A DNA stretch of 64,000 nt from Candidatus Woesearchaeota archaeon. Its GTDB lineage: Archaea > Nanobdellota > Nanobdellia > SCGC-AAA011-G17 > ARS1403. Of the stretch, positions 4,922 through 29,792 are shown piece after piece. The stretch lies in NCBI GenBank assembly GCA_016188065.1, contig JACPIN010000001.1:17661-81660 (forward strand). The letters run 5' to 3'. A program made the translations under genes and the position numbers. Every line of letters begins with the position of its first letter. Within the stretch, counting starts at the first letter, position 1. The notes beneath the pieces were generated by a model. That model had not been told where the DNA came from and did no database searches. It saw only the letters and a program-made list of their open reading frames with translations.

Positions 4922-4932
4922 TTTGCTCCTTT

Positions 4933-5633: not shown

Positions 5634-5738
5634 TTTTATTATCTTTACTAAAATGTCGAAAAAACACTTTTTAAAGTTTATTACCCCTGTACAGGATATA
5701 TAATAGAAAGATTTAAAACCTCAAACTACAATGATTTA

Positions 5739-8773: not shown

Positions 8774-8777
8774 ATCA

Positions 8778-13456: not shown

Positions 13457-13776
13457 CTAAGAAGGAATAATTTTAATCCCCTCTTTATCCTTGGCAATAA
13501 ATCCACGGGCTCCAGGTATTATGTTGTAATCCTCGACAACATCGCTAGGAATCCTTACAGCAATGCTATCCCCCATTTTGCAAAAGTTATTTCTTTAGCG
13601 CCACTCATCTTTCTATATCTGCCTGCTAATACTCTAAGCTGTTTCATATCCATAATCTCCTCGCTACAAGTTCTGCATTTAAACGCCTCAAATTCCACTC
13701 CGCCTTGCTTGATAGCATCCTTAATTTTTTCCATTTCCCCTTTGTTACATATCGGACACCCCATCTTAATTTTCAA
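13457..13776 (-). pseudogene. Zn-ribbon + AbrB/MazE-like DNA-binding protein, split by a 1-nt frameshift in a G5 run
   Basis: 13555-13776 encodes CPICN...CRTCSE...ITFAKWG and then stops. Frame +1 (13457-13576) continues ...GDSIAVRIPSDVVEDYNIIPG, which is the AbrB/MazE KWGxSxAVRIP motif. The junction is a GGGGG run at 13570-13574. Confidence 0.5.
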
Positions 13777-14161
13777 GAAATTTCTCTGGTTTAACTATTT
13801 TTACATCCTTATATTCCTTGATTTTCAGCAGATGTTTATCATAAGTCAAAATATATTCCGACTTAGATTCCAAAGCACATTCAATTATGTTATTGTCATC
13901 AAGATCTTCTTTAACTGCTTCGATTTTTATTTTTGGAATTATTAATTTAGAAAAAGATAAAACCAGCTCAACAAACTCCTCAATTTTTTCATCTTGATAT
14001 TTAAAATCCCTTTGAAGAACTTTAGAAAACTCTTCAAGAATAAAATCAGTAACAAAAATCTCTGCATTCTTCTTTATTAATTCATTTAATAACTTATGAC
14101 TAACGCTGTAATCCCATTGTGTAGCAGAAATAAGAAAGTTGGTATCAACGGTAATCTTCAT
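13766..14161 (-). CDS. vapC: PIN-domain (VapC-like) toxin
   Basis: 131 aa. MKITVDTNFLISA...FVTDFILEEF...ILTYD shows PIN acidic-residue spacing. Confidence 0.65.
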   Translation of the reverse strand: MKITVDTNFLISATQWDYSVSHKLLNELIKKNAEIFVTDFILEEFSKVLQRDFKYQDEKIEEFVELVLSFSKLIIPKIKIEAVKEDLDDNNIIECALESKSEYILTYDKHLLKIKEYKDVKIVKPEKFLEN

Positions 14162-14439
14162 TTAACTCCTCTATCCTTATGTATCAAGTCCTGAACATCA
14201 GTTTCTTTTATGCCAGACTTCTCAGCATTTTTCCTGCCATCCTTGGCCATAGTATCTAATCTCTTCAAGATTTCTTCCTTAGAAGGAGCCTGTATCTTTT
14301 TCAAGATAATCGTATCCTTGTTTCCGACAACAGCAAATATGCTTCCCTCACTAGAATGGGTAGTCTTCCTTATGTTCTGAGGAATTACTATCTGACCTTT
14401 TGAACTCATTTTAACAGTATCAATCATTTTAACCTCCAA
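14158..14439 (-). CDS. vapB: AbrB/SpoVT-family antitoxin (VapB-like)
   Basis: SSKGQIVIPQNIRK is a swapped-hairpin AbrB motif. It overlaps the vapC start by 4 nt. Confidence 0.65.
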   Translation of the reverse strand: MEVKMIDTVKMSSKGQIVIPQNIRKTTHSSEGSIFAVVGNKDTIILKKIQAPSKEEILKRLDTMAKDGRKNAEKSGIKETDVQDLIHKDRGVK

Positions 14440-14554
14440 ATCTTACTTTCTTACAATAAGAATTTCTTACTTATAAATGTTTCGCTCTTAATCAACGATG
14501 AGAAAACATTTAAAAGACATGCTATCTATCAATTTCATAATGTTAAAAACATCA

Positions 14555-16309
14555 ATGAGAACGCATACTTGCGAGCAGTTAAGAAAAGGAGATGTAAACA
14601 AAGAGGTGACATTATGCGGATGGGTAAATAGCCGACGCGACCACGGTGGGATAATTTTCATAGATTTAAGGGATAGATATGGATTTACACAAATAGTATT
14701 CGATCCGGATTTTAACAAAGAAACGCACAAACTAGCTGATTCTTTAAAGCGTGAGTTTTGTATACAAGTTTCAGGAAAGGTAAAAGAAAGAAAGAAGGGA
14801 ATGGAAAATAAAAACCTGCCCACTGGAGATACAGAAGTTTTCGTCTCAAAATTAAACATTCTTGCAAAAGCAAAAACCCCGCCTTTTGAGATAGATGATC
14901 GAATCATTCCATCAGAAGAATTGAGGTTGAAATATCGTTATCTAGATTTGCGCAGGCCAATAATGCAGCATAATCTATTATTTAGGCAGAAAGTTACACA
15001 AGCAGCCCGCGAGTTCATGGAGCAGGAGCATTTCTTGGAAATTCAAACCCCAATGTTCGTAAAGCCGACACCGGAAGGGGCAAGGGATTATTTAGTGCCT
15101 TCACGTGTCAACCCTGGAAAATTCTACGCCCTTCCTCAGTCCCCTCAATTATACAAGCAGATATTAATGATAGCAGGAATAGACCGCTATTTTCAGCTGC
15201 CTGCAATCTGCATGAGAGATGAAGATTTAAGGAGTGACCGGCAGCCAGAGCACTCTCAGCTGGATTTAGAAATGTGTTTTGTAGACGAGCAGGACATAAT
15301 GAATTTGGTAGAAAGATTAATGAAGCACATTGTGAAAAAAAACTTAGGAAAAGAAATCAAGGAAGAGTTTAAAGTTCTAGATTACGAAGAGTCCATGGAA
15401 AGATTCGGCACAGAGAAGCCAGATCTGAGATATGGTTTAGAACTAGCCACCATAACAGATATCGTAAAGAAAGCAGACTTTGAAGTTTTCAAGAAAGCCG
15501 AAGTCGTAAAATCATTAGTAGTGGAAAAGGCGCTAGGAAGAAAAGAGATAGACTCATTAATAGATTTTTCGCAAAAAGAATTAGGCGCTAAAGGCCTGGC
15601 ATATATGAAATACGACGGAAAAATCCTGGAATCCTCAATAGTGAAGTATTTCCCTGAAAAAGTGCAAAAAGAATTATTAAGCGTATTAAAGCCAAAAAAT
15701 GATTCAACAATTTTCTTTATAGCCGACAAGAAGAAGAAAGCAAATGAAATTCTCTCAGGGTTAAGAAGAGAATTAGCAAAGAGATTAGATCTTATAAACA
15801 AAGACGAATTAAAATTCTGCTGGATTGCTCGCTTTCCGTTATTTGAATGGAATGAAGAGGAAAATAAATGGGAGGCAATGCATCACATTTTCTCTCGCCC
15901 GACAAAAGACACAGAAAAATTCATAGAAAAAGATCCTTCAAAAGTCTATGGTAATCTATTCGATTTGGTCTTGAACGGAACTGAATTAGCATCAGGCTCA
16001 ATAAGGATCTCTAATCCTGACCTGCAGGAAAAAATGCTGAAGATAGTTGGGATAAAAAAAGAAGAAGCAATGGAAAAGTTTGGATTTTTATTAGATGCAT
16101 ATCACTATGGAAGTGGAGACCATGGGGGGATGGGAATTGGTTTTGATAGAGTTGTAGCAATGCTTCTAGGCATAACAGACATAAGAGAAGTAATTGCATT
16201 CCCGAAAAACAAAGCTGCGCAGAATCCAATGGACGGCTCTCCGTCAGAGGCAACACCTCAACAGCTTTCAGATTTACATATAAAAATAGATATAGCAAAA
16301 AAGAGGTAA
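14555..16309 (+). CDS. aspS: aspartyl-tRNA synthetase, bacterial type (likely non-discriminating)
   Basis: MRTHTCEQLRKGDVNKEVTLCGWVNSRRDHGGIIFIDLRDRYG is a bacterial AspRS N-terminus. About 585 aa with a GAD insertion, and followed directly by gatC. The ORF track starts at an upstream in-frame M (14498). Confidence 0.9.
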   Translation: MRTHTCEQLRKGDVNKEVTLCGWVNSRRDHGGIIFIDLRDRYGFTQIVFDPDFNKETHKLADSLKREFCIQVSGKVKERKKGMENKNLPTGDTEVFVSKLNILAKAKTPPFEIDDRIIPSEELRLKYRYLDLRRPIMQHNLLFRQKVTQAAREFMEQEHFLEIQTPMFVKPTPEGARDYLVPSRVNPGKFYALPQSPQLYKQILMIAGIDRYFQLPAICMRDEDLRSDRQPEHSQLDLEMCFVDEQDIMNLVERLMKHIVKKNLGKEIKEEFKVLDYEESMERFGTEKPDLRYGLELATITDIVKKADFEVFKKAEVVKSLVVEKALGRKEIDSLIDFSQKELGAKGLAYMKYDGKILESSIVKYFPEKVQKELLSVLKPKNDSTIFFIADKKKKANEILSGLRRELAKRLDLINKDELKFCWIARFPLFEWNEEENKWEAMHHIFSRPTKDTEKFIEKDPSKVYGNLFDLVLNGTELASGSIRISNPDLQEKMLKIVGIKKEEAMEKFGFLLDAYHYGSGDHGGMGIGFDRVVAMLLGITDIREVIAFPKNKAAQNPMDGSPSEATPQQLSDLHIKIDIAKKR

Positions 16310-16316
16310 AAAATCA

Positions 16317-16601
16317 ATGCAGATAGACCGGCAATTAATAGAAAAAGTAGCAAAAAATGCAAGATTGAAGTTGACAGAGCAGGAAATAAAAGAATTTCTT
16401 CCAGAACTAAAAGATATCATAGCTTATTTCTCTGAAATAGAAAAAGCACCAACAAGCAATTTGCTTCCGTCATTCCATCCGATAGAAATCAAAAATATAA
16501 CTAGAGAAGATATTCCAAAAGAAGGTTTAAAGCAGGAAGAAGCATTACAAAATACAAAGCATAAGCAAGATGGTTACTTCAAAGGCCCAAAAACAATATG
16601 A
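16317..16601 (+). CDS. gatC: Asp/Glu-tRNA amidotransferase subunit C
   Basis: 94 aa. LTEQEIKEFLPELKDIIAYFSEI is a GatC pattern. Located between aspS and gatA. Confidence 0.8.
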   Translation: MQIDRQLIEKVAKNARLKLTEQEIKEFLPELKDIIAYFSEIEKAPTSNLLPSFHPIEIKNITREDIPKEGLKQEEALQNTKHKQDGYFKGPKTI

Positions 16602-16951
16602 AAGAAAAACAAAAGTTTATCCTAGTATTTTTATTGACTATCTTAATAACAAGGATGATTATCTTTTTTATCCCTAGAACAAATTTTATATACACAGATC
16701 AATTTCATCATTCATTTATAGGTATAATTCTGTTAATCATTTATATTTTCATAAGAAATCAGCATCTATTAGCCATTTTATTAGGATTAATAGTAGACCA
16801 GATAACCTCTGCTCCATTTTATATTACAAGTTTATTTAATTATAATTTCGTAGAAAAATCATTCTGGAGTTATTGGTCAAACTATTCAGTTATCTCAACA
16901 GTGTTCGCAATAATAGTCTCAATCTACTTGATTAAAAAGTTACACAGGTGA
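16598..16951 (+). CDS. hypothetical membrane protein
   Basis: 117 aa, 3-4 TM helices. It overlaps gatC by ATGA. Confidence 0.3.
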   Translation: MKEKQKFILVFLLTILITRMIIFFIPRTNFIYTDQFHHSFIGIILLIIYIFIRNQHLLAILLGLIVDQITSAPFYITSLFNYNFVEKSFWSYWSNYSVISTVFAIIVSIYLIKKLHR

Positions 16952-16954
16952 TAT

Positions 16955-17752
16955 ATGTATCTATCAAAAAAGAAAAAAATTTCCTACAATTATATAAACA
17001 AAGATTCAAAAAAGCCAGTATTAGTTTTCTTGCATGGGCTTGGAGCAAATTCAACAACGTGGAAAGGGGTTATAAGCAACCTGAAAAATAAAAACTTGCC
17101 AATACTATATCAGGATTTAAGAGGTCATGGTAAAAGCGAAATCTTTAGTAATTATGAACTTGAAGAATTTGCAAAGGATTTAAATGAAATTTTAAAAAAA
17201 GAAAAAATAAAAAAAATTATTTTGATAGGTCACAGCTTAGGGGGTATGATCTCACTAGTTTTTTATAAATTATTTAAAAATAAAGTAAGAAAAATAATTT
17301 TAATAGATACAACCTATAAAAATCCCGTACCTGTATGGTATCGTTATTTTTTTTATGTGATTGACAAGTCAATGACGAAAATAATCAACAAAATACATCT
17401 TCTAAAAAAGTCCCTAAATAAATACAGAGATTTTTATCAATTAAAAAACCAGCCAAATTTTTCAATTGTGCTAAAAACGATGTTTTACAGAAGAGATAAA
17501 GTCCAATTAAAGTGTATAAAAAACTTAACAAATTTTGATGCCACAAATATAATCAAATCCATTGAGATTCCAACATTAATCATAGGAAGCAAATATGATG
17601 AATTATTCCCTCCAAAAATACAAAAAGAAATGCATAAATACATAAAAGCAAGCAAATTAGAAATAATGAAAGGGACCCATGCAATTATTATAAAAAATCC
17701 AGATATAATTTCAAGAGAAATTTCGAGCTTCATAAAAGATGAAAATCAATGA
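16955..17752 (+). CDS. alpha/beta-hydrolase
   Basis: VLVFLHGLGAN, GHSLGG (GxSxG), and a C-terminal H region. Confidence 0.7.
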   Translation: MYLSKKKKISYNYINKDSKKPVLVFLHGLGANSTTWKGVISNLKNKNLPILYQDLRGHGKSEIFSNYELEEFAKDLNEILKKEKIKKIILIGHSLGGMISLVFYKLFKNKVRKIILIDTTYKNPVPVWYRYFFYVIDKSMTKIINKIHLLKKSLNKYRDFYQLKNQPNFSIVLKTMFYRRDKVQLKCIKNLTNFDATNIIKSIEIPTLIIGSKYDELFPPKIQKEMHKYIKASKLEIMKGTHAIIIKNPDIISREISSFIKDENQ

Positions 17753-19085
17753 ATATCTAGAAAAAGTAAAATCAAAAGAAATCTCCGTAGTTAAGACAGT
17801 AGAAAAAATTCTTCAGGAAGCAAAAAACTCGCCAAACCATTTTACAGCAATCTCAAGATCATATGCATTAGAGCAGGCAGAAAAAATAGAAAAAAATCCA
17901 GAAGGAAGATTAGCAGGCCTTCCAATTTCAGTTAAAGACGGTGTTTGTGTAAAAAATATAGAATCATCAGCAGGCTCGGAAATATTGAAAAACTACAGGC
18001 CTCCGTTTTCAGCTACTGTAATCAACAAATTAGAAAAAGAAGGGGCAATCATCATAGGAAAAACATCCCAGGATGAATTTGGTTTTGGAGGATTCTCAGT
18101 GAACACAAAAAAGATTCCAAAAAACCCTCATGATTTAGCAAGATCCTGTGGAGGAAGCTCAGGTGGAGCAGCAGGTTTTACATCATTCGCAACGCAGCCG
18201 CATATCGCATTGGGAGAATCTACAGGGGGAAGCATAGCAAATCCAGCATCTTTCTGCGGAGTGGCAGGATTAACTCCAACTTATGGCTTAGTTTCAAGAT
18301 ATGGTTTAATTGATTACGCTAATTCTCTAGATAAGATAGGGACTATTGCAAAAACCGTATCAGATGCTTTCCTAGGTTTATATCATATAGCAGGCTACGA
18401 CGAAAAAGATTCAACTTCATTGCCTCAAAAAATGCTTCAAGAAAAAAAAGTAAAAAAAATAGCAGTCATAAAAGAATCATTAAATGTAGATAAAGAAATA
18501 AAAGATATTATTTTAAGTAAATTAAAAAACTATGATACGATCTCGCTTCCATCGATAAAAAAGTATTCTCTTCCAGCATATTATCTAATAGCCTTGTCAG
18601 AAGCATCAACAAATCTGGCAAAGTATTGTGGCTTAAGATATGGTCAGACTCTTCCATTACAAGGAGGTTATAATGAATTTTTCACAGAAGTCAGAAGCAA
18701 GTATTTCTCAAAAGAGGCAAAGCGCAGAATTATCCTAGGAACTTTCGCAAGAATGTCGGGTTTCAGGGATGCCTATTATCTTAAAGCTTTAAAGGCAAGA
18801 ACACTAATAATTAAGGAATACAAGAAAGCATTCAAGAAATATGATATTCTAGTTTCCCCAACTATGCCAGTCACAGCTCCAAAGTTTTCAGAAATAGAAA
18901 AATTATCTCCATTAGAAAATTATATGATGGATATTTTAACAGTGGGTCCAAATCTAGCAGGTCTTCCCCACTTATCTCTAAATGCGGGCTTCAAAAACAA
19001 GCTTCCAGTTGGAATCATGCTAACAGCAAACCATTTAGAAGAGGAAAAATTAAGGGCTTTAGGTGAGGAAGTTGAGAATGACTGA
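17739..19085 (+). CDS. gatA: Asp/Glu-tRNA amidotransferase subunit A (amidase)
   Basis: Amidase signature GGSSGGAAG, a Ser-cisSer-Lys region, 448 aa. Confidence 0.9.
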   Translation: MKINEYLEKVKSKEISVVKTVEKILQEAKNSPNHFTAISRSYALEQAEKIEKNPEGRLAGLPISVKDGVCVKNIESSAGSEILKNYRPPFSATVINKLEKEGAIIIGKTSQDEFGFGGFSVNTKKIPKNPHDLARSCGGSSGGAAGFTSFATQPHIALGESTGGSIANPASFCGVAGLTPTYGLVSRYGLIDYANSLDKIGTIAKTVSDAFLGLYHIAGYDEKDSTSLPQKMLQEKKVKKIAVIKESLNVDKEIKDIILSKLKNYDTISLPSIKKYSLPAYYLIALSEASTNLAKYCGLRYGQTLPLQGGYNEFFTEVRSKYFSKEAKRRIILGTFARMSGFRDAYYLKALKARTLIIKEYKKAFKKYDILVSPTMPVTAPKFSEIEKLSPLENYMMDILTVGPNLAGLPHLSLNAGFKNKLPVGIMLTANHLEEEKLRALGEEVEND

Positions 19086-19515
19086 TCACATAGCAATAAT
19101 GAAAAAATCCTGGAATTTAACAGAAAAAATACTAACAAGAGAAAAAACCATAGAATCGAGATGGTACAAAAACAAATATCCTCCCTGGAATAAAATCAAA
19201 CCTGGAGAAACAATTTACTTCAAAAATTCTGGAGAACCTGTTACAATAAAGACTGAAGTAGAAAAAGTTTTACAATTTTCAGATTTAAACAAAAACAAAG
19301 TCGAAGAAATATTAGAAAAGTATGGAGCAGAAGATGGAATTAAAAAAGAAAAGATTCAAGAATTTTTTAGTTTATTCAAAGATAAAAAATATTGTATTCT
19401 AATATATTTAAGAAATCCAGAAAAGATAATCCCTTTTGGAATAAACAAGAAAGGTTTCGGATTAATGTCCGCATGGTTGTGCGTAGATAATATTGAGAGG
19501 TTAAAAATAAATTAA
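19078..19515 (+). CDS. hypothetical small protein, possibly ASCH/PUA-like
   Basis: The start overlaps the gatA stop (ATGA). KTIESRW...KPGETIYFK weakly resembles an ASCH beta-barrel. Confidence 0.3.
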   Translation: MTDHIAIMKKSWNLTEKILTREKTIESRWYKNKYPPWNKIKPGETIYFKNSGEPVTIKTEVEKVLQFSDLNKNKVEEILEKYGAEDGIKKEKIQEFFSLFKDKKYCILIYLRNPEKIIPFGINKKGFGLMSAWLCVDNIERLKIN

Positions 19516-19519
19516 TAAA

Positions 19520-19568
19520 ATTTCAACTGACATACTTGCCATATACCCGCACAGGGTTTATAAACAAA
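19520..19568 (+). promoter_or_regulatory. conserved ~49-bp upstream element plus TATA (copy 1)
   Basis: ATTTCAACTGACATACTTGCCATATACCCGCACAGGGTTTATAAACAAAA is about 88% identical to 28997-29045. The TTTATAAA box sits about 25 nt upstream of the ATG at 19587. Confidence 0.55.
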
Positions 19569-19586: not shown

Positions 19587-21629
19587 ATGAAATCGACAGA
19601 ATATATTACAGAAATAGACATAGGGGATATGCCTTACTTATCCAGGGGAATAAGAACTTATTTAGGATATGGACTTTTAGACACTAAAAAAATAGGGTTA
19701 TATCATGGTTTGGTTGGAAATTGGGAGTGCGGATCAAACCTTCCAAATAAAGAGAATTGGAATAGAATTAAACAATTGGTAAAATCCTCTGGAAAGTCTT
19801 ATGATGAGCTAATAGGATTAGGGAAGAAGAATTTTGGAGATTTGATAGGAGAGCTGTCAACAAAATCCAAAATACCAGAACAAATTTTTCTGAGATATGT
19901 AATATCAAAATGTCTCCATTTGAATTCGTCAAAAAAATTGGAAGACATTAAAAAAGGTAAGAGTAACTTATCAAAGAAAACAAAAAAGAAAGTATTAGAG
20001 ATATGGAAATATATTGAAGAGAATCAAGATAAAGATCCTAGGAGGATTATTATAGATTTACAAAGGAGATCAATTTTCTCGGATAGAAATCTTTTCTTAA
20101 AGATATTATTTTCAGGGTATATAAAGAGTCAAAAAAAAATCCTCGAAGATATCGGTATAAACTTCAGTAGTGGGTACATTAGTTCAATGTTTCATGATAG
20201 AAGACCCGTACCAAACATATTAATAAAAAAATTAAAAATGAATAATCCAAAAACAATATCAGAGATAGAAGAAAAAATAAATAGTAAAGATTCAAGAATT
20301 CATCAACAATGGCAGAGAGTGTCAAGATATAATTCAGTAATAGATTTACATTATAAGAACGAGGAATTTGAAGAAAAAGTTTTCAATATCATAGACAAGA
20401 TAGGGAAATACACAGTCAAAAATGGAATTGTTTCAGATAATGGTTTTAACTATATTGGAGAAGTGGATATAATCAGTAAAATAAATGGAAAAACAATTTT
20501 CTTTCTTTGCAAAAATACTAATAGTAGAAAATTAATTAACATAAAAAGGGATATAGTTAAGAAATCAATATTATTGCAGAAATACATTAATCCATATAAA
20601 ATTATTTTGGTTACCTCTTGCCTAGTAAGCAAAAAGGATTATTTTGAAAGAAACAAACTCTTAGTAATAGATAAGAAGAAACTATATAAGATACAAAATA
20701 ATCTAGAAGGCTTAGTTGAATTTGTTAAAAACAAAGGAAACTATCGCAGAACTAAAGAAAAAATAGATTTTGGAAGAGAAATCCCCACTATACTAAAAAA
20801 ATACAAATTATCCAAATACCAATTAGGCTCATTATTAAACATGAATGGAGGATATCTATCAAAAATTATCAAGACCGGCACAGAATTAAATAAAACAAGC
20901 AAACTAAAAAAGAGACTAGAAAAATTCCTTAAAGAATCAAAAAACAAAACAATAAGAGAGGTGCATCTATTATCAAACAGAAAGATACACCTAAAAAAGG
21001 AGGAATTTATTCTAAAGTATGTAAGGAAGAAACTAGGATTAAGTCAACAAAAGGTTTCAAAAGATCTAAAAACAAACCCTTCCAATATTGGAAATCTAGA
21101 AAGGGGCTTAGTAAAGAGAATAAAATTCAAACATACATATATACAATATTTAAAGTCGTTTAATAGTTATAATAAACTCAAAAAACAAGGAGAAAAAGAA
21201 TTTGTAAATTATAAGAAAAAATGGAATCACTTACCGAAATCTGGAAAAATAACAAAGATAAGGGACGAGCCAGTAAGAGGAAGAGAATTAGAAGAATTTA
21301 CAACAAAAATATTAGAAAATAACGGATTTTTTGTAATTAGGAACGTAGTTGTTACAAATAAAGACTTAACACTAAAACAAGAAATAGATATTTATGCAAA
21401 AAGAAAAAATAGGGAAATCGTTATAGAATGCAAAGATACTAAGATGTCAACAAAATGGCAAGATATTTCATATATCCTTAAAGATATAAAAACAGAAGTT
21501 CCTATTGATGAGGTAATATATTTGTCTCCACACATAACAAAACTAGGAAAAGATATACTTAAAGAGATAGGAATCATAGGATTAACCACGAAAGAATTAA
21601 AGAACTATTTGTGTGGTGGATCGTCATGA
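19587..21629 (+). CDS. large Lys-rich protein with HTH motifs and a C-terminal PD-(D/E)xK nuclease-like domain
   Basis: 680 aa. XRE-like HTH segments (LSKYQLGSLLNMNGGYLSKII; LGLSQQKVSKDLKTNPSNIGNLERG). The C-terminal ...EEFTTKILENNGFFV...QEIDIYAK...IVIECKD is a D...ExK core of restriction-endonuclease-like fold. Confidence 0.45.
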   Translation: MKSTEYITEIDIGDMPYLSRGIRTYLGYGLLDTKKIGLYHGLVGNWECGSNLPNKENWNRIKQLVKSSGKSYDELIGLGKKNFGDLIGELSTKSKIPEQIFLRYVISKCLHLNSSKKLEDIKKGKSNLSKKTKKKVLEIWKYIEENQDKDPRRIIIDLQRRSIFSDRNLFLKILFSGYIKSQKKILEDIGINFSSGYISSMFHDRRPVPNILIKKLKMNNPKTISEIEEKINSKDSRIHQQWQRVSRYNSVIDLHYKNEEFEEKVFNIIDKIGKYTVKNGIVSDNGFNYIGEVDIISKINGKTIFFLCKNTNSRKLINIKRDIVKKSILLQKYINPYKIILVTSCLVSKKDYFERNKLLVIDKKKLYKIQNNLEGLVEFVKNKGNYRRTKEKIDFGREIPTILKKYKLSKYQLGSLLNMNGGYLSKIIKTGTELNKTSKLKKRLEKFLKESKNKTIREVHLLSNRKIHLKKEEFILKYVRKKLGLSQQKVSKDLKTNPSNIGNLERGLVKRIKFKHTYIQYLKSFNSYNKLKKQGEKEFVNYKKKWNHLPKSGKITKIRDEPVRGRELEEFTTKILENNGFFVIRNVVVTNKDLTLKQEIDIYAKRKNREIVIECKDTKMSTKWQDISYILKDIKTEVPIDEVIYLSPHITKLGKDILKEIGIIGLTTKELKNYLCGGSS

Positions 21630-22987
21630 AGATAGGAATAGAGGCGCATATCCAGCTCTCAACTCTCAGTAAAATCTTTTGTTCTTGTCCAACATCTGGC
21701 TCAGAAAATCCAAATACTCTCACTTGTCCTACATGTTTGGGATTACCAGGTTCAAAGCCAGTTTTAAATAAAGAAGCGCTACATCAAGCAATAAAAGTAG
21801 CTCTCGCTTTAAATTGCTCAATGCCAACAGAAACTTTTTTCTCTCGTAAGAACTACTTTTTCCCAGATTTACCAAAGTCATATCAAATCTCCCAGTATGA
21901 AATCCCGATAGGGATAAATGGAAAATTAGAGAATATAAGAATGAGAAGGATTCATTTAGAAGAAGATCCAGGAGCATTAATTCATAAAGGCAACACAACT
22001 TTAATCGACTATAACAGATCAGGGATTCCTTTAATAGAAATTGTAACAGAGCCAGATTTTAAATCTCCCAATGAAGTTCGTTTGTTTCTAAGAAAATTAA
22101 TCACAATTCTAGAATATTTAAGCATCTACACCAGAAAGTCAGAAGCCACTATGAAAGCAGATGCAAATATCTCGACAACAGGAGAAAAAGTAGAAATAAA
22201 AAACATAACAGGGCTAAAGGAAATTGAACGCGCTTTGGAATATGAAGCAGCAAGGCAGAAAAAAGAGCCAGCTGAACAGCAAGAAACTCGCGGCTGGAAT
22301 TCAGAAAAAGGAATCACTTTTCTACAAAGAACAAAAGAGGAAGAAAGTGATTATGGGTATATCTTCGATTCTGATTTGCCAAAGATAGAAATTTCAAAAA
22401 GTCTACAAGAAGAAATTAAGAAACAAATTCCAGAATTATTTTTAGAAAAAGTTTCAAGATTCAAAACGCAATATAAGCTGCAGGCAGAGGATGCAGAAAC
22501 ATTGGCAGCAGAAAAAGAACTAGCAGAATTATTCGAGCAAGTAGCAACAAATATAGATCCTTTATTAGCAGCAAAATGGCTTAGAAGAGATTTGATGAAA
22601 GTTCTGCATTACAATAAAAAAGAATTGAAAGAAATAAAAATAGATGCCATGCACATTATCGAATTATTAACATTAGTAAAAGAAAGAAAAATAAATGATG
22701 CAACCGCAAAAGAGCTTCTAATAAAATTAATTGAAAAGCCATTCTCTCCAAGAGAGCAGGTAAAAAAACATAGTTTAGAAATGCTTTCTTCAGAAACAGA
22801 AATAGAAGATATGTGTAAAGAAGTAATAAAAAATAATAAAAGTGTTGTAGAAGATTACAAAAAAGGAAAGCAGGAAGCACTGCATTATTTAATCGGACAG
22901 GTTATGCGCTTGTCAAAAGGAAAGGCAGATCCAAAAGAAACAGAAAAAATATTGAAGAGATTATTGCAAAAAACTGTAGTATCCTAA
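21611..22987 (+). CDS. gatB: Asp/Glu-tRNA amidotransferase subunit B
   Basis: MKIGIEAHIQLSTLSKIFCSCPT is a GatB N-terminus, followed by the cradle domain and a YqeY-like tail. 458 aa. Confidence 0.9.
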   Translation: MWWIVMKIGIEAHIQLSTLSKIFCSCPTSGSENPNTLTCPTCLGLPGSKPVLNKEALHQAIKVALALNCSMPTETFFSRKNYFFPDLPKSYQISQYEIPIGINGKLENIRMRRIHLEEDPGALIHKGNTTLIDYNRSGIPLIEIVTEPDFKSPNEVRLFLRKLITILEYLSIYTRKSEATMKADANISTTGEKVEIKNITGLKEIERALEYEAARQKKEPAEQQETRGWNSEKGITFLQRTKEEESDYGYIFDSDLPKIEISKSLQEEIKKQIPELFLEKVSRFKTQYKLQAEDAETLAAEKELAELFEQVATNIDPLLAAKWLRRDLMKVLHYNKKELKEIKIDAMHIIELLTLVKERKINDATAKELLIKLIEKPFSPREQVKKHSLEMLSSETEIEDMCKEVIKNNKSVVEDYKKGKQEALHYLIGQVMRLSKGKADPKETEKILKRLLQKTVVS

Positions 22988-22989
22988 AT

Positions 22990-23433
22990 TCATTTATATT
23001 TGGGCTTTAATTCATTTAACAGCCTTTTAACTCTTTGAATGAATTCTTCTGCAATTGATAAATTATGCTCAGCAATGTCTTTAGAGTATACGTAGTGATA
23101 ATCTGCATCTTCTCTTGATGACATCGCCGCATTAAAGTCATTAATAAATCTCATCTCAAGTTTTCCTTTTTTATTTAATTCTTCTAAAACAACCCTCACA
23201 GCAAAATGCCTTTTTTCTCTATAGCCGAGTTCAAATAAAACCGCCCTTGCAGCATGAAAAAGGGAATAATAAGATTTGACAATGCCCCACTTAAAGTCCC
23301 CTTCTTCAAATGCCTTTTTTGCACTTTCCAGGTCATAATAGGCTTCATTTATCTCTTTCTGAACAAGTTTCTCATCGACATTAATCTTTTGCAGGATCCC
23401 TTTCTCCAAACAATCATTTATGTCCATCAGCAC
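22990..23433 (-). CDS. HEPN-domain protein (partner of the upstream nucleotidyltransferase)
   Basis: 147 aa helical protein with the ...ELGYREKRHFA region (R-x-H-like HEPN motif). It overlaps the MNT gene. Confidence 0.5.
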   Translation of the reverse strand: MLMDINDCLEKGILQKINVDEKLVQKEINEAYYDLESAKKAFEEGDFKWGIVKSYYSLFHAARAVLFELGYREKRHFAVRVVLEELNKKGKLEMRFINDFNAAMSSREDADYHYVYSKDIAEHNLSIAEEFIQRVKRLLNELKPKYK

Positions 23434-23975
23434 AGCCTTATTTTATCTTTTTCAACCCTTTCATAAAAAGCGGCATCCTTTTTTGAGAACTGAGACCATT
23501 CCAGTGGTGTAAAAGAAATAAATTTTATTTCTCTCCCTATTTGCCTCGATATCCTATCAAGATCAGGAAAAATTTGCTCCTTTTTTATTTTCCCGATTAT
23601 TAACAAGTCGATATCACTGCTTTCCACATCATCTCCTCTTGACGAGCTTCCATAGAGATAAATCTCAATGCCATATTTATTTCCCAAGAGATTAATCTTA
23701 TTCAGAATTAACAGGTTATCCAGAACTTTAAACTGTTTAACTATAGAATTATTTTTATTAAGCTGATAAATCTTATTTAATCCTATTTTCTCCATTGTTA
23801 TTAAATTTTCCTTCAAAAGAAACCTCAGATATTTTGTCAGAGTGGCTTTGGCTATTTTAACACTCTTCTTCAAATTTGTATATGAAATCTGGCTTCTCGG
23901 ATTCCTAATAAAGTATTTCAGAACCCTAAGTAACGCTCTATTTCCAAGTTCATCTAATTGAACCATATGTATCAA
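23427..23975 (-). CDS. wHTH-fused minimal nucleotidyltransferase (MNT)
   Basis: An N-terminal winged helix is followed by the NTase motif YLYGSSSRGDDVESSDIDLLI (GS...DxD). Confidence 0.65.
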   Translation of the reverse strand: MIHMVQLDELGNRALLRVLKYFIRNPRSQISYTNLKKSVKIAKATLTKYLRFLLKENLITMEKIGLNKIYQLNKNNSIVKQFKVLDNLLILNKINLLGNKYGIEIYLYGSSSRGDDVESSDIDLLIIGKIKKEQIFPDLDRISRQIGREIKFISFTPLEWSQFSKKDAAFYERVEKDKIRLC

Positions 23976-24060: not shown

Positions 24061-26952
24061 TCACTCTAATCTTTTCAATTCCTCTTTTAATCTCTCTTTC
24101 TCTTCTCCTTTAGCATTTAAATATTTCTGCGCCAGCTCCAAAAATTTATTATAAGAATTCTTCTCAAGTATAACAACTATCTCATCTCTAACGCATTTAT
24201 TCGGATCTTGGCTAGAAGTTCTAAATCCGAATGGGCAACAAATCTCAGGCTTGTTTACTAAAACACAATTAAATCTGCTTGAGCTTCCAGTAGTAGTATC
24301 TTGAACAACATTCCCTGTAACATCTGTGAAACCAACATCCCAAACTGTGCTTCCAGTAACAGCAGGAATTTCAGAACTGCTTTTAACACCTGAAACAGCC
24401 AACACAGAATCCTTGCTAATCTTTTTTCCTTTATATTCAAACACAACAGGAAGATTAACACCGCTTCCCTTTCCAGCATTTACCTTAACATTAAATTCAA
24501 CCTCGCATTTCTCTCCATACCCCAAATTCTTGCAAGCTTTACTTTTCTCTTTAGCATCCAAGCATTTCTTACAATCCTTCCCGCCACAATCGACATATTC
24601 TTCATCCTTATTTTGTGTTCCATCCTCGCAATGATTAGGCTCAGTAAAAATATTCTTAACAGTTTCTACTATTCTCTCAACAGCAGTTTTCTCCTCTGGC
24701 TTTTTATCGCCGCAAGTTTGCCCCTGCTCAATATTTCCGTAGACACAATTGTTCAAGCAATTACACCCGTCAACATCATCGCATTTTACATTGCAGTTAT
24801 TTAAGCTGCTTTTTGCACCATCGCCTAGAACCTCACTACATACATCTCTTCCAAATTCAAGTGCAAACATAAAGAAATCCTCTAAGTCTATTTTTCCACT
24901 ACCATCCAAATCAAATTTCTCAGTTTCATTATTTATTCCCTTGCCAAATTCATTTGCAAACAAGAAATAATCATCCATATCCACCTTCCTGTTTTTGCTA
25001 AAGTCTACTCTCTTATTCGGTGTACATTCAAGAACATCAGAAGTCTTGGCTAAAGCTCCAGAAGTAACTTTAGTGGCTCTACATTTACTTCCCTTGCCAA
25101 ATTCGTCTGTAAAAATAAAAAAATCATTAAAGTTAATCTCATTGTTGGAATCCATATCATACTTTTTTGTCTCTGCAACAGTAGGTTTCCCAAAATTTTC
25201 TTTAAACAAATTAAAGTCGCCCATATCAAAACAATCGTTATTATCAAAGTCACCTTTTAAAGTTGGGCGAGGAGGTTCTGCAGGTTTTGTAGGCTGCTCT
25301 ACTCGTTTAACTGAACTGCATTTAACTATCAACCTTCCTTTCTTATCAATTCCAGGACAAGGATCTGGTTTGCAGACATTGTTATCGAAATAATATTCAA
25401 CTTCTTTCTCTCCTACCCCCCCATCTATAATTCCGCTTCCTGCTCTTTGAATCTTCTCAACTGAACAAGAAGATTTTCTGACATTATCAGCAGGATCCTG
25501 AGGACAATAATAATAAGACTGAATTTTTTCAATTACACTGCCTGCAGGGCAATTAAATTTTGCACGTCTGTTTCCTTCCATAGCATCTTTAGCCGAAAGA
25601 AACCCACCATCAGGAGTTGTTTCTATCTTTTCATTTACACCTAGATAAAGACCAGCGAAAATAAAAAAATCTTCAAAATCAATATCCCTATCTCTATCCA
25701 AATCAAACTTAGCATTTTCCTGCACTACTTGCTTTGCAAAATTCTGAGAAAATAATTTAAAATCTTCAACATTAACCACATTATTATTGTCAAAATCAGC
25801 ACCGACTTTCGGATATTCAATCCCGCACTTTGCAATTAACTTTCCCTTCTTCACAAATCCTGGACAAGGATCTCCGCATATTTCATTGCTAAAGGTATAT
25901 CTTACTGAGAGACTTCCTTTTCCACCGACATTTAACCCCAACCCGCCATAAGTGTTAAGGGGGCAAAATTTAGATTTCCCCAATAAAGCAGCATTGTTAT
26001 CTCCACTTTTATCCCTATCAGATCTATCTTCAACATTCAAACAGTAATAATAGGCTTGCAATTCAGTAATAATTTTCCCAGAAGGACAAAAAACATCAGC
26101 ATCATAATTTCTATCAGCAATACCACTTTCAACGACGTCACCCCCAGTTAGCAGAACAATAGGTTCATCCTTTTTAGGCAGAGGAAGAGTTTCAATAGTT
26201 GGACATACTTGATATTTAATTTCCTCAAGGTTAAAGGGGTTGCATTTATTCACATCTTTACAGCTTCTAGATTGGACAATTCCTGGTTTACATTCACTCC
26301 ATACCCCACAATCTGTAAATTTGGGAACGCAACATCCAGTCACTGTGCATATACCAGACAAAAGACAAGGATCACTACCGGTTTTCCAACATTTCTTATC
26401 CTGTCCAAGTTGAGAGCAAGCAAGATCACCGCCTGTTTCTCTAACAGGATAATTACAAACTCCTCTTCCAAAATCCATGCTTGGAGACACTAATCCAATG
26501 CTACTTCCAGTACACCAACCACCAAAATCACCACAACTTGGAATCTTAGATGGAACAGGTTTAGTAGAAGATAGTGATTCCTGCGAAGGGAGGGTTGGCG
26601 GAGGAGAAGTTGTTTGAGTGCTTTCAGATTTTACACATCCAGTAGCAGTACATTTTTCATTTTCTCCACATGGTCTTCCCACTGTAGCCCAACATCTTCT
26701 TTGATCATTCTTAGGAATAGTTCTTTTTGCACAGGCCTCAGAGTCATCTTTGACTTCTTGTTTATAATAACAATATCCTCCTCGAAGATAAAGTTGTGTC
26801 TGCCCGCCATTGTCATGTATAGAACAATATTCGTCCTCTTCAAACTCGCAATTAGTTCCAGCTCCTACATTAACAGAAAAATACACACTAACTAAAAACA
26901 AAATAATTAGACTAAAACAAATTCTCTTTCCATAAAATTTTCTATTTATCAT
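24061..26952 (-). CDS. secreted Cys-rich protein with at least 3 dockerin-like double-repeat modules
   Basis: 963 aa with a signal peptide. Repeated modules of the form DFDNNNVVNVEDFKLF...FDLDRDRDIDFEDFFIF (dockerin Ca-binding loops). Repeated GDPCPG...KCG motifs. Confidence 0.6.
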   Translation of the reverse strand: MINRKFYGKRICFSLIILFLVSVYFSVNVGAGTNCEFEEDEYCSIHDNGGQTQLYLRGGYCYYKQEVKDDSEACAKRTIPKNDQRRCWATVGRPCGENEKCTATGCVKSESTQTTSPPPTLPSQESLSSTKPVPSKIPSCGDFGGWCTGSSIGLVSPSMDFGRGVCNYPVRETGGDLACSQLGQDKKCWKTGSDPCLLSGICTVTGCCVPKFTDCGVWSECKPGIVQSRSCKDVNKCNPFNLEEIKYQVCPTIETLPLPKKDEPIVLLTGGDVVESGIADRNYDADVFCPSGKIITELQAYYYCLNVEDRSDRDKSGDNNAALLGKSKFCPLNTYGGLGLNVGGKGSLSVRYTFSNEICGDPCPGFVKKGKLIAKCGIEYPKVGADFDNNNVVNVEDFKLFSQNFAKQVVQENAKFDLDRDRDIDFEDFFIFAGLYLGVNEKIETTPDGGFLSAKDAMEGNRRAKFNCPAGSVIEKIQSYYYCPQDPADNVRKSSCSVEKIQRAGSGIIDGGVGEKEVEYYFDNNVCKPDPCPGIDKKGRLIVKCSSVKRVEQPTKPAEPPRPTLKGDFDNNDCFDMGDFNLFKENFGKPTVAETKKYDMDSNNEINFNDFFIFTDEFGKGSKCRATKVTSGALAKTSDVLECTPNKRVDFSKNRKVDMDDYFLFANEFGKGINNETEKFDLDGSGKIDLEDFFMFALEFGRDVCSEVLGDGAKSSLNNCNVKCDDVDGCNCLNNCVYGNIEQGQTCGDKKPEEKTAVERIVETVKNIFTEPNHCEDGTQNKDEEYVDCGGKDCKKCLDAKEKSKACKNLGYGEKCEVEFNVKVNAGKGSGVNLPVVFEYKGKKISKDSVLAVSGVKSSSEIPAVTGSTVWDVGFTDVTGNVVQDTTTGSSSRFNCVLVNKPEICCPFGFRTSSQDPNKCVRDEIVVILEKNSYNKFLELAQKYLNAKGEEKERLKEELKRLE

Positions 26953-28439
26953 CCTAAACTTACCTTAACATCTCCGCATCCATCTTTCTCAGAGCAAATA
27001 AAGCTAGCTTTAACAGTAACTTCCTCATTGCTATTAACATTTATCGCGCCTTCCGCATTATTTACAAAAACACTAGGCTCGCAAGAGCTGCTTGGAATTC
27101 TCTGCTTCTCCCAAACATTTCCACTCACACAAGCCTCTCTGCCATCACCGCATAACCCAGTTCTTCTAACCTCTCCAGGGATACAGCTGCATATGCTTTC
27201 ATCTATTTCACCATTGCAATTATCATCTATTTTATTAGCACAAAATTCGCCGCTATTTTTCAGCAAAGTTACCTGCTCAACTTGCTTTCCTGTACAAGCA
27301 CATCCCTGTAAATTTTCATCGATAACACCATTGCAGTTATTATCAACCCCATCGCAAATTTCTTTAGCATTAGGATTTATCTTTCCATTGAAATCATTGC
27401 AGTCATCCCCTCCAATTAATTTGCAGAAAGCCCTTTTATTATCTCTAAACCCATCTCCATCAGCATCGCAGGTTGCAGTGCAGTCCAAATCTTTCCCATC
27501 GCAGTTCTCATCTATCCCATTATTATTATTAACATCAGGATTGCATCTCTCAGTAGCACTAGGATTTATCAAAGCATTATTATCATTGCAGTCAGTTCCG
27601 CCTTGAAAAGCATTTGAATCATATCCGTCTCTATCATTATCTAATTCTTGCCCAGTTTTTAAGCTGCATTCACAATATCCTGCAAAGAAAGTGCTTTTCA
27701 AATCCCCAAGCAATCCGGGAACTGCCATGTTAGCGCATATTTTATCAGGAATTATTTGAGAAGCACCGGCAAAAACACATCCTATTTTTTCAATAACGGT
27801 TTTTTCCTTAGGAATTTCACCGACAGGCTTTTCAGTTACCTTAACATCTTTCTGCAATTTCTCAGCTCCAGGCTTTACACACTCTCCTAATCTCCCTTTG
27901 CACTCAGCTAAATTTTCATTGGTGCAGCATATCTGCTCACTGCTCGGGCATCCGCAAAATCCAGGACCGGCACATCTTGGAACAATCTTTTGATTGCTGC
28001 AGAACAAGGGCTTGTCATTCGCATTATTCGTAAATTTAGAAACACATTCATTATTTTTAATAGCAGTCCCTTTATAATCACAGCTCAATAAATTCTCAAA
28101 GTTTAACACGAAATCTATCCGGTTAGGATTCTGGTTCACATCTCTAACAACAAAGTAATAATCTCCAGGCTCATGTATCTTCAGCGAATCAAAAGAAACT
28201 GGATCACAAACACCATTAGAATTACAGCTCAACAAAGAAGATGCTTTAAATTTTTCTATAGGATCAGCCCCGCCTTGATATTTCCCCTTGTAGAATTCAG
28301 CAGTTTTAGAAAAATCTCCTTTAATTGTAATTTGAATATTTCCTTTAGCAAGAACATATTGAATATTCAAAGTAGACTGGCTAAATGATGAAGAAGCTAT
28401 CAAGAGAAAAATTAAAATTAAAATTAACTTGCTGAGCAA
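26949..28439 (-). CDS. secreted Cys-rich protein with MopE-like putative metal-binding repeats
   Basis: 496 aa with a signal peptide. Repeats of DCNDxNxxINPxAxExCDGxDNxCxGxIDE type. Confidence 0.5.
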   Translation of the reverse strand: MLSKLILILIFLLIASSSFSQSTLNIQYVLAKGNIQITIKGDFSKTAEFYKGKYQGGADPIEKFKASSLLSCNSNGVCDPVSFDSLKIHEPGDYYFVVRDVNQNPNRIDFVLNFENLLSCDYKGTAIKNNECVSKFTNNANDKPLFCSNQKIVPRCAGPGFCGCPSSEQICCTNENLAECKGRLGECVKPGAEKLQKDVKVTEKPVGEIPKEKTVIEKIGCVFAGASQIIPDKICANMAVPGLLGDLKSTFFAGYCECSLKTGQELDNDRDGYDSNAFQGGTDCNDNNALINPSATERCNPDVNNNNGIDENCDGKDLDCTATCDADGDGFRDNKRAFCKLIGGDDCNDFNGKINPNAKEICDGVDNNCNGVIDENLQGCACTGKQVEQVTLLKNSGEFCANKIDDNCNGEIDESICSCIPGEVRRTGLCGDGREACVSGNVWEKQRIPSSSCEPSVFVNNAEGAINVNSNEEVTVKASFICSEKDGCGDVKVSLG

Positions 28440-29063: not shown

Positions 29064-29792
29064 ATGAAAATCACGCCAGAATTATCAGAAATAAGTGGGA
29101 TCCATAGTGGAGATGGACACTTAAGGAGGGATAAAGAACTCGAAATTAGCGGGAGCTTTGAAGAAAAAGAATATTATGACACGAGGGTCATTCCTTTATT
29201 TAATAATTTCTTTAATTTATCTATAAAGGGAAGGTTTTTTACAAGTAAAGGAACATATGGTTTTTGGGTAGTCAACAAAGAAATAGGAAATACATTAAAG
29301 GAAATAGGATTCCCTTCAGGTAACAAAACCAAAACTGTAAAAGTCCCTAACATCATATTGAAGTCTAACAACAGTTCTATTAGAAGATCCTTCCTAAGAG
29401 GTTTATTTGACACAGATGGTTGCATGAGTTTTAATAAAAGAATTTATAATAAAAATCATTTCAAAAAAACCAAAAATTTCTATCCTACCATACTAATCGT
29501 GAGTATATCCAAAAATCTGATTAAGGGAGTAGATTTATTATGTAAAAAAGAAGGTTTTGAATCAAAAGTATACCTCCACATACCAAAAAAGAAAACAGAA
29601 AACATCCGTTATATAATGCAAATATCTGGGGAAAAATCTCTTCTAGATTGGATGGAAAAAATCTCCCCTAAAAATCAAATAAAAGTTTCTAGATTTAAGG
29701 TCTGGGAAAAATTTGGGCACTGTCCATCAAAAGCAACCTATAAAGAAAGACTAGAAATACTTAAAAGCCAGCAAATTAAAGATTTCTTGTAG
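29064..29792 (+). CDS. double-motif LAGLIDADG homing endonuclease-like protein (free-standing)
   Basis: Two LAGLIDADG motifs: ISGIHSGDGHL and FLRGLFDTDGCM. 242 aa. The stop codon overlaps the first nt of the tRNA. Confidence 0.7.
   Translation: MKITPELSEISGIHSGDGHLRRDKELEISGSFEEKEYYDTRVIPLFNNFFNLSIKGRFFTSKGTYGFWVVNKEIGNTLKEIGFPSGNKTKTVKVPNIILKSNNSSIRRSFLRGLFDTDGCMSFNKRIYNKNHFKKTKNFYPTILIVSISKNLIKGVDLLCKKEGFESKVYLHIPKKKTENIRYIMQISGEKSLLDWMEKISPKNQIKVSRFKVWEKFGHCPSKATYKERLEILKSQQIKDFL

Follow-up and report, generated by a model that had tools for sequence, protein, structure and literature searches.

The 64,000-nucleotide stretch of a Candidatus Woesearchaeota chromosome analysed here (contig JACPIN010000001.1, positions 17,661 to 81,660; hereafter the window) contains, directly upstream of gatB, an open reading frame (ORF) of 680 codons that runs from ATG to TGA. 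The encoded protein is an internal tandem duplication of one module, in which an array of XRE-type helix-turn-helix (HTH) bundles is followed by an Mrr/Hjc-like PD-(D/E)xK domain, and its domains place it in the PD-(D/E)xK superfamily, close to Mrr_cat, Hjc and AF1548, and in the XRE HTH class. We found that the gene is an old and often-lost companion of gatB, not a fresh insertion. Our reading of its function is tentative: a single-chain, pseudo-dimeric, site-specific endonuclease, probably a nickase, that is inherited with gatB, often lost and possibly homing-like.

The frame is not a chance one, since it stays open for 2 kb in DNA of 28% G+C. Its product contains 16.3% lysine, 11.5% isoleucine and 0.1% alanine. 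An identical protein is on record (NCBI HYV89_00275, from a Candidatus Woesearchaeota metagenome-assembled genome), and the protein is unchanged on six Logan contigs of one sample series, all of which have the same gene order.

Domain architecture of the 680-aa protein

An AlphaFold (AF2) model built on an 18-sequence family alignment reached a pLDDT of 87.6 and a pTM of 0.56; the single sequence gave a pLDDT of 36. The model, profile comparison and Foldseek concur on a layout of three HTH bundles and a first nuclease-like domain (N1), followed by two HTH bundles and a second nuclease domain (N2), with a disordered linker at residues 385-390 in the model (Table 1). The duplication is also evident within the protein itself, where BLASTP of the two halves aligned residues 103-311 with 410-618 (23% identity, E 4e-7) and hhalign of the family profiles paired N1 with N2 over 119 columns (probability 96.5%, E 8.5e-10). 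In the AF2 model both domains follow the order alpha-beta-beta-beta-alpha-beta.

The first helical bundle contains GNWECG, a conserved XRE-like signature, and residues 17-57 align with canonical HTH_3 segments of the family members P0010, P0012 and P0013; the N-terminal DNA-binding region as a whole holds most of the invariant residues of the gatB subfamily. In the second DNA-binding region, residues 396-440 align with XRE HTH segments of P0010, P0012 and P0016. Pfam HTH_3 exceeds its cut-off at residues 476-509 only (25.1 against 23 bits), and the other four HTH bundles of the window protein, which have no Pfam match, were assigned from the model and by alignment to members that do; HTH_3 matches 11 of the 18 family members, with a best E value of 3.6e-20. 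An earlier note on this DNA, made from the sequence alone, had recognised the XRE-type HTH correctly and counted two such segments, where the model and the family alignment give five helical bundles. It had also placed the architecture in no named family, and indeed no Pfam, NCBIfam, PADLOC or PHROGs model covers it and the literature yielded no paper on the family.

Nuclease domains and active sites

Structure prediction bore out the restriction-endonuclease fold suspected in the earlier note, and did so twice: AF2, Foldseek and profiles all recover it in N1 and in N2, and the nuclease suspected around residues 250-340 proved to be the degenerate copy N1 (residues 246-381). All high-probability domain-level Foldseek matches are PD-(D/E)xK nucleases, with matches to Can2, Cdn1, VC1899, AF1548 (124 columns, rmsd 4.6, probability 1.0), Bax1, NucS, Hjc and the R2 endonuclease domain; the nickase Nt.BspD6I (6qnz_B) was matched at a lower probability of 0.60-0.75 (E 5e-3). 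A viral structure library returned Mrr-like restriction endonucleases, and the family profile compared with the PDB returned Can2-like 8bao (E 8.9e-4) together with Hjc-like ST1444, Hjc and AF1548 (E about 1e-3). Against Pfam, isolated N2 scored marginally above the Mrr_cat cut-off (21.2 against 21 bits) and also matched the NERD and Card1_endonuc profiles, and Hjc scored 19.6 with the whole protein and 18.9 with isolated N2 (cut-off 21.1); N1 of the window protein had no direct Pfam match. Over 24 family domains the recurrent Pfam matches were to Mrr_cat (10), Hjc (9), NERD (7) and Card1_endonuc (5), the best E values among family members being 3.8e-8 for Mrr_cat, 1.4e-8 for Hjc and 1.7e-9 for NERD.

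N2 has the full motif, with a glutamate in helix 1 (E569, 21291-21293), an aspartate in strand 2 (D601, 21387-21389, preceded by E599) and the (D/E)xK of strand 3 (E614, 21426-21428; C615; K616, 21432-21434), and thus contains the C-terminal D...(E)CK core that had been picked out before. In N1 the residues are E262, E292, D294 and L307-C308-K309, which leaves the motif incomplete, and replacement of the beta3 glutamate by leucine (L307) makes this copy probably non-catalytic. A joint alignment of all nuclease domains showed that the helix-1 glutamate is invariant and that an asparagine, the strand-2 aspartate and the cysteine of (E)CK are kept in at least 90%. Close relatives, including the protein of locus L099, have LCK, SCK, QCK, MCK or LCS in N1 and ECK, ECS, ECT or ECE in N2; P0007 has the reverse arrangement, with ECK in N1 and MCT in N2; and in the more distant group, as in the paralogues linked to RFC genes, both sites are intact. 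The acidic set E...D...E lies in N2 in the window protein, P0002, P0003, P0005, P0006 and L099. Every full-length member has at least one domain with this set, and the domain that carries it can swap, which we read as selection for one working site per chain. Members without the canonical lysine (ECS, ECT) have a lysine or arginine five residues past the glutamate.

Family members and their linkage to gatB

An exhaustive HMMER search of 1.84 billion proteins (E <= 1e-3) yielded 19 cluster representatives; word-indexed homologue searches with the full protein, its C-terminal 149 aa or the family profile returned the protein itself only or nothing. Full-length relatives are P0002, P0003 and P0004 (39-40% identity), P0005 (38%), P0006 (35%) and P0007 (26%); P0010, P0012, P0013 and P0017 make up the more distant group (22-25%), P0016 is a single-module form of 307 aa, and the remaining representatives are fragments. 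L099 is one further metagenome locus, found with a six-sequence family alignment. The family is rare and restricted to Woesearchaeota/DPANN archaea. No relatives were found in viral contigs (IMG/VR), plasmids or phages; PADLOC gave generic HTH or weak Cas4/CARF-PDDEXK nuclease-core matches only (E >= 4.7e-4), PHROGs gave generic HTH or nuclease-core matches only, and no match to LAGLIDADG, GIY-YIG, HNH or other homing-endonuclease families was obtained with Pfam, PHROGs or NCBIfam. A C-terminal PIP-box-like motif was considered by eye only and dropped.

The family gene is followed directly by gatB in eight divergent lineages at 24-49% identity, namely the window, L007 (P0002), L008 (P0003), L009 (P0006), L010 (P0007), L015 (P0005), L016 (P0004) and L099 (from the metagenome scan), and the GatB proteins of the carriers are 42-55% identical to that of the window. 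In the window the stop codon of the 680-aa ORF and the start codon of gatB share nucleotides (ATGA), and the genes are therefore probably co-transcribed and translationally coupled; of seven readable junctions, six have the family-gene stop at or within the gatB start, the exception being L008, where a short gap separates them. The upstream side varies between loci: L099 and L016 have gatA and then about 0.5 kb, L007 has gatA and five unrelated genes, L015 has MgtE, L009 has RlaP and L010 has a DUF7523 gene, with GNAT also among these neighbours. The conserved unit is therefore the family gene with gatB and not gatA-X-gatB, and the earlier picture of an insertion that breaks a contiguous gatA-gatB pair is, in that form, not supported, given this conservation of position.

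Two of these loci have features of their own. In L099 the 0.5 kb gap between gatA and the family gene (4869-5369, - strand) contains an 80-codon frame ('...LHPDKTKILDLGRGIPFVGFRIFYY...') that by eye resembles part of a reverse transcriptase of the group II intron or retron type. L016 is a contig of 2014 vintage on which both gatA (4832-6201, two ORFs) and the family gene (6761-8846, P0004 and P0018) are split, and its GatB has a stretch at 15-18% identity (~8950-9100); we rejected the idea that the L016 family gene is a pseudogene, since gatA and gatB on the same contig are broken too and frameshift or assembly errors are the more likely cause.

The tie to gatB could also mean that the protein is an RNA-directed partner of GatB, its domains acting on tRNA or other RNA, for example as a transamidosome accessory or processing factor. 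The family gene and gatB stay paired, with overlapping frames, even where gatA is elsewhere; some PD-(D/E)xK enzymes cut RNA, Can2 and Card1 are among the matches, and a tandem form (alpha'2) of the tRNA splicing endonuclease combines an active with an inactive copy. This explanation is nevertheless highly improbable, as XRE HTH domains read double-stranded DNA, the distant paralogues pair with RFC or helicase genes and not with tRNA genes or enzymes, a Pfam scan of the window and family proteins detected no RNA-binding domain, and most relatives run GatCAB without the 680-aa gene.

Away from gatB, P0010 (L011 2588-4147) follows the genes for the small and large RFC subunits, the single-module P0016 (L017 10001-10924, also L018) overlaps the start of the RFC-small gene, and both kinds of RFC-linked locus carry a convergent M48 peptidase; P0017 (L014 486-2480) is directly upstream of a ResIII/DEAD helicase gene, which recalls XPB-Bax1 operons. 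These neighbours would suit a structure-specific host repair or recombination nuclease of the Hjc, XPF-ERCC1, NucS or Bax1 kind, with one active and one structural domain and a position before gatB that is incidental operon hitch-hiking. The nuclease domains are indeed nearest to Hjc, NucS, Bax1 and AF1548, and one active plus one degenerate domain is the familiar pattern of XPF-ERCC1 and Mus81-Eme1. We still consider a repair nuclease improbable: five sequence-reading XRE HTH bundles are unusual for structure-specific nucleases, the extreme rarity of the family (19 clusters in the whole protein search) and its absence from most relatives are odd for core repair, and the tight linkage to gatB in eight lineages is left unexplained.

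Presence, absence and descent

A GatB-based scan with one genome per species gave 16 Woesearchaeota/Nanoarchaeia loci (GatB identity 49-81%), and none of these related genomes (0/16) has a family member within 6 kb. The closest relative, L034 (GatB 81%, GatA 88%), has neither an ASCH gene nor the 680-aa gene; its gatA overlaps gatB, the GTG start of gatB overlapping the last eight codons of gatA (26 nt, L034 5992-6017). This overlap segment is present twice in the window, as TTGAGAATGACTGA at the gatA end (19063-19085) and as ATGAAGATAGGAATAGA at the gatB start (21626-21642), and the two copies flank a 2.54 kb block made up of an ASCH-like ORF (Table 1) and the 680-aa ORF. They fit either an insertion with a junction (target) duplication or a precise deletion between short repeats in the L034 lineage. 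Other non-carriers have a gatA-gatB spacer of ~30 nt to 1.2 kb, and the spacers of L019-L033 hold unrelated genes that by eye resemble GNAT, Maf-like, IMPase-like and membrane proteins, so that the gatA-gatB site is generally permissive. The synteny comparison proposed in the earlier note thus came out divided: the conserved position 5' of gatB goes against an insertion, and the absence of the gene from L034 and from all 16 relatives preserves part of that idea.

Interruptions of gatC-gatA-gatB also differ by lineage, with a membrane ORF and an alpha/beta hydrolase gene in the window (16598-17752) and three small ORFs in L034 (3432-4671); in these archaea the cluster acts as a general landing or retention site for unrelated genes.

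Codon composition agrees with long residence of the 680-aa gene. Its G+C content at third codon positions (GC3) is 24.4%, against 25.2% for gatA and 25.5% for gatB, and its distance in relative synonymous codon usage (RSCU) is 0.96 against a window mean of 1.01. The lower overall G+C of the ORF (27.7% against 35.1 +/- 4.0%) is accounted for by an amino-acid composition rich in lysine, isoleucine and asparagine. Foreign origin by composition was rejected on the basis of the host-like GC3 and RSCU, and the codon-usage deviation that the earlier note had suggested looking for did not appear.

In a neighbour-joining tree of GatB (200 bootstraps) the carriers form a basal paraphyletic grade, in the order L010; L009 and L099; L007; the window with L034; L015; and a crown clade including L016, which is most simply read as presence in the ancestor followed by repeated loss. 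In outline the family tree follows the GatB tree, with L010 and L009 most divergent, but it unites L099 with L015 at 100% bootstrap. For this pair family identity (49%) exceeds GatB identity (45%), whereas for every other pair it is 3-19 points lower, and the two sequences may credibly represent one case of horizontal movement into the same site. The presence/absence polymorphism at the gatB site is real and reflects repeated loss or site-specific gain; presence at this fixed site is sporadic, a pattern that repeated loss explains equally well.

The earlier note had offered a defence or mobile-element nuclease as one possibility. A nuclease of a mobile element or of anti-phage defence that had recently entered between gatA and gatB would account for the overlapping gatA and gatB of L034, where the gene is missing, for the short duplicate flanking the 2.54 kb block and for the lower overall G+C, and genes of toxin-antitoxin type (HEPN/nucleotidyltransferase and PIN) lie nearby. 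Such an origin is already largely refuted by synteny and codon usage, in that the gene holds the same position before gatB in eight lineages and its GC3 and codon usage match those of its neighbours; moreover, PADLOC gave only generic HTH matches, no viral, plasmid or phage relatives were found, and no integrase, transposase or DNA methyltransferase turned up beside the gene, the neighbours being only partly annotated. We regard it as scarcely credible. A defence island was likewise rejected, as PADLOC, PHROGs and plasmid/phage searches gave no support and no context of this sort was found. No DNA methyltransferase was present among the Pfam-checked neighbours in the window, L001, L007, L010 and L015, those of L016 and L099 being partly annotated; the methyltransferases seen were of PCMT or small-molecule types only, in L015 and L014.

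Promoter motifs shared within the family

The 71-nt spacer ahead of the 680-aa ORF holds a TATA-like box, tttataaa, at 19557-19564, 22 nt before the ATG, in line with the earlier suggestion that the gene has its own promoter element; the spacing would be right for an archaeal TATA box that gives rise to an mRNA with a short leader or none. Boxes of this kind, 20-35 nt ahead of the start codon, precede most family genes. The promoters of the window (19534-19564) and of L011 (~2534-2565, P0010) match without gaps at 25 of 32 positions over a 32-nt stretch, and both have ACCCGCACAG immediately 5' of the TATA; these two loci represent different subfamilies, with proteins 24% identical and different neighbours. 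A full palindrome, ACTTGACAAG, is located ~11 nt 5' of the TATA in L011 and L016 (~6698-6735) and occurs inverted in L017 (~9945-9975), and ACTTGCCATAT in the window is a degenerate half of the palindrome CTTGNCAAG. Seven G+C-containing 10-mers are shared, where shuffled sequences gave 0.85 on average and at most 6. The other occurrences of CTTGNCAAG in 345 kb of archaeal loci were judged by eye: none has a TATA after it, and they look coding (CTT GAC AAG). A palindrome that is linked to the family promoters and found elsewhere without a TATA suggests a family-specific operator and autoregulation. An upstream k-mer common to L013, L016 and L017, ACCGACGATA, was rejected, the L016 copy being inside the coding start (ATGACCGACGAT), which leaves only the L013/L017 pair.

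These motifs bring forward the possibility that the protein is a non-catalytic transcription factor, whose HTH arrays bind the operator in its own promoter and control the unit of family gene and gatB, its nuclease folds serving as dimerisation or ligand/metal-sensing modules. The XRE-type HTH, the place of the gene as first in a two-gene unit with its own TATA and a stop overlapping the gatB start, the operator-like palindrome near the TATA in L011, L016 and (inverted) L017 and the match between the window and L011 all suit such an autoregulator, as does the loss of the canonical lysine from many N2 domains and of the glutamate from most N1 domains. If catalysis were irrelevant, however, decay of both nuclease copies would be expected, yet each full-length member has at least one E...D...E domain, P0007 shows the reciprocal swap and paralogues have both domains intact. 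In addition, a simple autorepressor would hardly need 680 aa and five HTH bundles, and most relatives dispense with the gene and express gatB all the same. On balance we think a purely regulatory protein unlikely, while giving it serious weight as the chief rival of our reading.

Proposed mechanism and comparison with known nucleases

If the protein is a site-specific endonuclease, as we tentatively propose, N1 and N2 would pair inside one chain as a pseudo-dimer, the five HTH bundles would read a long asymmetric DNA site, and the single intact site in N2 would cut one strand, making the enzyme a site-specific nickase; where both sites are intact, as in the distant paralogues, both strands could be cut. 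The gene may carry the promoter that transcribes gatB and be coupled to gatB in translation, and this, together with purifying selection on at least one active site, would explain its long vertical persistence before an essential gene. It would then be a dispensable, semi-selfish resident that is frequently lost and perhaps occasionally re-acquired at the same site in the manner of a homing endonuclease. The HTH domains probably also bind the conserved palindrome in the promoter of their own gene.

In core fold and motif layout the nuclease domains are like Mrr_cat, Hjc and AF1548 (PF04471, PF01870; PDB 1y88, 4tkd, 2eo0), and the cysteine of E-C-K is typical of the Mrr-like subgroup. N2 scores only at or below the family cut-offs, however, and the 680-aa protein has the domain twice, each copy behind an XRE HTH array, whereas the N-domain of Mrr is a winged helix and Hjc, a small homodimer, has no DNA-reading domain. 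Complete and degenerate copies that act as a unit, like N2 and N1 of the window protein (and in reversed order P0007), are known from XPF-ERCC1, Mus81-Eme1, Sau3AI and the alpha'2 tRNA splicing endonuclease, which are structure- or palindrome-specific and have no XRE HTH arrays. The likeness to the CARF-nuclease effectors Can2, Card1 and Cdn1, which supplied the top matches in Foldseek and in the PDB profile comparison (8q43_A, Foldseek E 7.8e-4; 8bao, profile E 8.9e-4), is confined to the PD-(D/E)xK domain: there is no CARF Pfam match and no CRISPR context, and the regions before N1 and N2 are all-helical HTH bundles.

By design the 680-aa protein would work most like type IIS and nicking enzymes, an analogy drawn from its layout. 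FokI and Nt.BspD6I have a similar arrangement of HTH-type recognition subdomains with one PD-(D/E)xK cleavage domain; Mva1269I, BsmI and BsrI have two catalytic sites per chain and act as monomers; nicking by enzymes of this group in which only one site works is described, and isolated large subunits of the heterodimeric enzymes also nick (PMC3017599). The 680-aa protein differs from these enzymes in having the whole HTH and nuclease module duplicated and not the catalytic domain alone, in lacking sequence similarity beyond the nuclease core, and in being encoded by a chromosomal, archaeal gene locked to gatB, with no cognate DNA methyltransferase seen among its partly annotated neighbours.

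Free-standing homing endonucleases share with the 680-aa gene a fixed intergenic site by a conserved essential gene, an own promoter and presence/absence polymorphism; single-chain LAGLIDADG enzymes, which are duplicated homodimers, follow a similar pseudo-dimer logic. In L099/L015 there is one conflict between host and gene trees, the branching order being otherwise broadly congruent. The 680-aa protein is set apart from these enzymes by its membership of no known homing family and by long, intact ORFs, kept at 24-49% identity, with broadly host-like phylogeny and codons.

Several observations weigh against the endonuclease reading, and against its homing-like component in particular. The pTM of the model is only 0.56, so the pairing of N1 with N2 stays presumptive. 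The catalytic lysine of N2 is replaced by serine, threonine or glutamate in most gatB-linked members (ECS, ECT, ECE), which could reflect relaxed selection on catalysis, and this frequent loss is the main reason to doubt selection for one working site. In the window itself, no more than half of the promoter palindrome is present. Full-length ORFs at 24-49% identity in one site, with broadly congruent trees, are not what the usual homing cycle of invasion and decay produces, and GatB shows no co-conversion tract between L099 and L015. The trees themselves are neighbour-joining trees of divergent, compositionally biased sequences, and the 16 non-carriers and eight carriers were gathered by different routes, so that their counts give no frequency.

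A bolder proposal, to which we attach a low probability, is that the family constitutes an unrecognised archaeal class of free-standing, single-chain PD-(D/E)xK homing-type endonucleases, which carry promoters, sit immediately 5' of highly conserved genes for information processing (gatB for one subfamily, RFC or helicase genes for others) and persist by leading the essential gene in transcription and translation; an alternative, just as unconventional, is that the protein would be a nuclease-derived factor in physical partnership with GatB.

Genes surrounding the 680-aa ORF

The features of the locus are listed in Table 1. The order of genes given in the earlier note is correct, save that it passed over the ASCH-like ORF between gatA and the 680-aa ORF. 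The start of this second gene between gatA and gatB overlaps the gatA end. It was found neither beside the family homologues in other carrier loci nor in L034, and for that reason appears to have joined the site separately and later. In L002 (1-975), one of the six Logan contigs, the gatA segment has 92% protein identity to the window and the sequence from the ASCH-like ORF onward is 100% identical, which points to recombination between strains, or else to a chimeric assembly, with its boundary just 5' of that ORF.

Table 1. Features of the aspS-gatB region of the window and domains of the 680-aa protein
Feature	Position	Strand	Description
aspS	14498-16309		
gatC	16317-16601		
Membrane ORF			117 aa; between gatC and the alpha/beta hydrolase gene
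Alpha/beta hydrolase	16955-17752		
gatA	17739-19085	+	NCBIfam gatA E 1.1e-128, 429.9 bits, below the cut-off of 481.1
ASCH-like ORF	19063-19515	+	145 aa from the ATG at 19078 (longer form 150 aa); Pfam ASCH 22.1 bits, cut-off 21.2
Promoter region	19534..19564	+	ACTTGCCATAT, ACCCGCACAG (19545-19554) and TATA-like box; putative promoter or operator
680-aa ORF	19587..21629	+	Tandem duplication of HTH array plus PD-(D/E)xK domain
N-terminal DNA-binding region	19620..20321	+	Helical bundles at residues 12-80, 83-165 and 168-245 (AF2)
N1, nuclease-like domain 1	20322..20729	+	Residues 246-381 (hhalign, AF2)
Second DNA-binding region	20772..21227	+	XRE-type bundles at residues 396-468 and 471-547 (Pfam, alignment, AF2)
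N2, nuclease domain 2	21228..21626	+	Residues 548-680; Mrr/Hjc-like PD-(D/E)xK
gatB	21626..22987	+	NCBIfam GatB 528.6 bits

We also noted toxin-antitoxin-like pairs on both flanks of the asp/gat cluster. One comprises a HEPN protein (E 3.3e-18) and a nucleotidyltransferase with an N-terminal winged HTH (22990-23975, - strand); the other, at 13766-14439 (- strand), comprises a PIN-domain protein (E 9.3e-14) and a 93-aa ORF ('SSKGQIVIPQNIRK') that resembles, by appearance only, an AbrB/SpoVT-type antitoxin and is a candidate for that role. Beyond the HEPN pair, at 24061-28439 (- strand), are two large ORFs, one of 963 aa with a weak Dockerin_1 match and one of 496 aa with a MopE-type metal-binding motif (E 4.4e-21); their products are probably secreted or located at the surface. 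Further along, in a housekeeping region, a free-standing 242-aa LAGLIDADG_3 ORF (29064-29792, + strand, E 6.3e-9) lies ~1.1 kb upstream of the prolyl-tRNA synthetase gene (30933-32366) and is a candidate free-standing homing endonuclease in the same genome.

Significance

Proteins that combine an HTH with a PD-(D/E)xK domain are common. The 680-aa protein differs from them in the duplication of the whole module, with five HTH bundles in what would be a single-chain pseudo-dimer, in the tendency for exactly one nuclease site to remain intact, and in that its gene is tied, through deep divergence, to the start of an essential gene for a tRNA amidotransferase and is yet dispensable; what is unexpected is that a gene which relatives readily lack should be coupled to gatB so deeply and tightly. 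For annotation, the lesson is that a gene inserted in an operon need not be a recent mobile or defence element. Should the protein prove to be a site-specific nickase, it would offer a natural scaffold of a new sort, whose recognition site is long and asymmetric; should it only regulate, it would illustrate the exaptation of a nuclease fold; and should it be homing-like, it would show how a selfish nuclease can last for long periods in reduced DPANN genomes, by becoming the leader gene that brings an essential gene its promoter.

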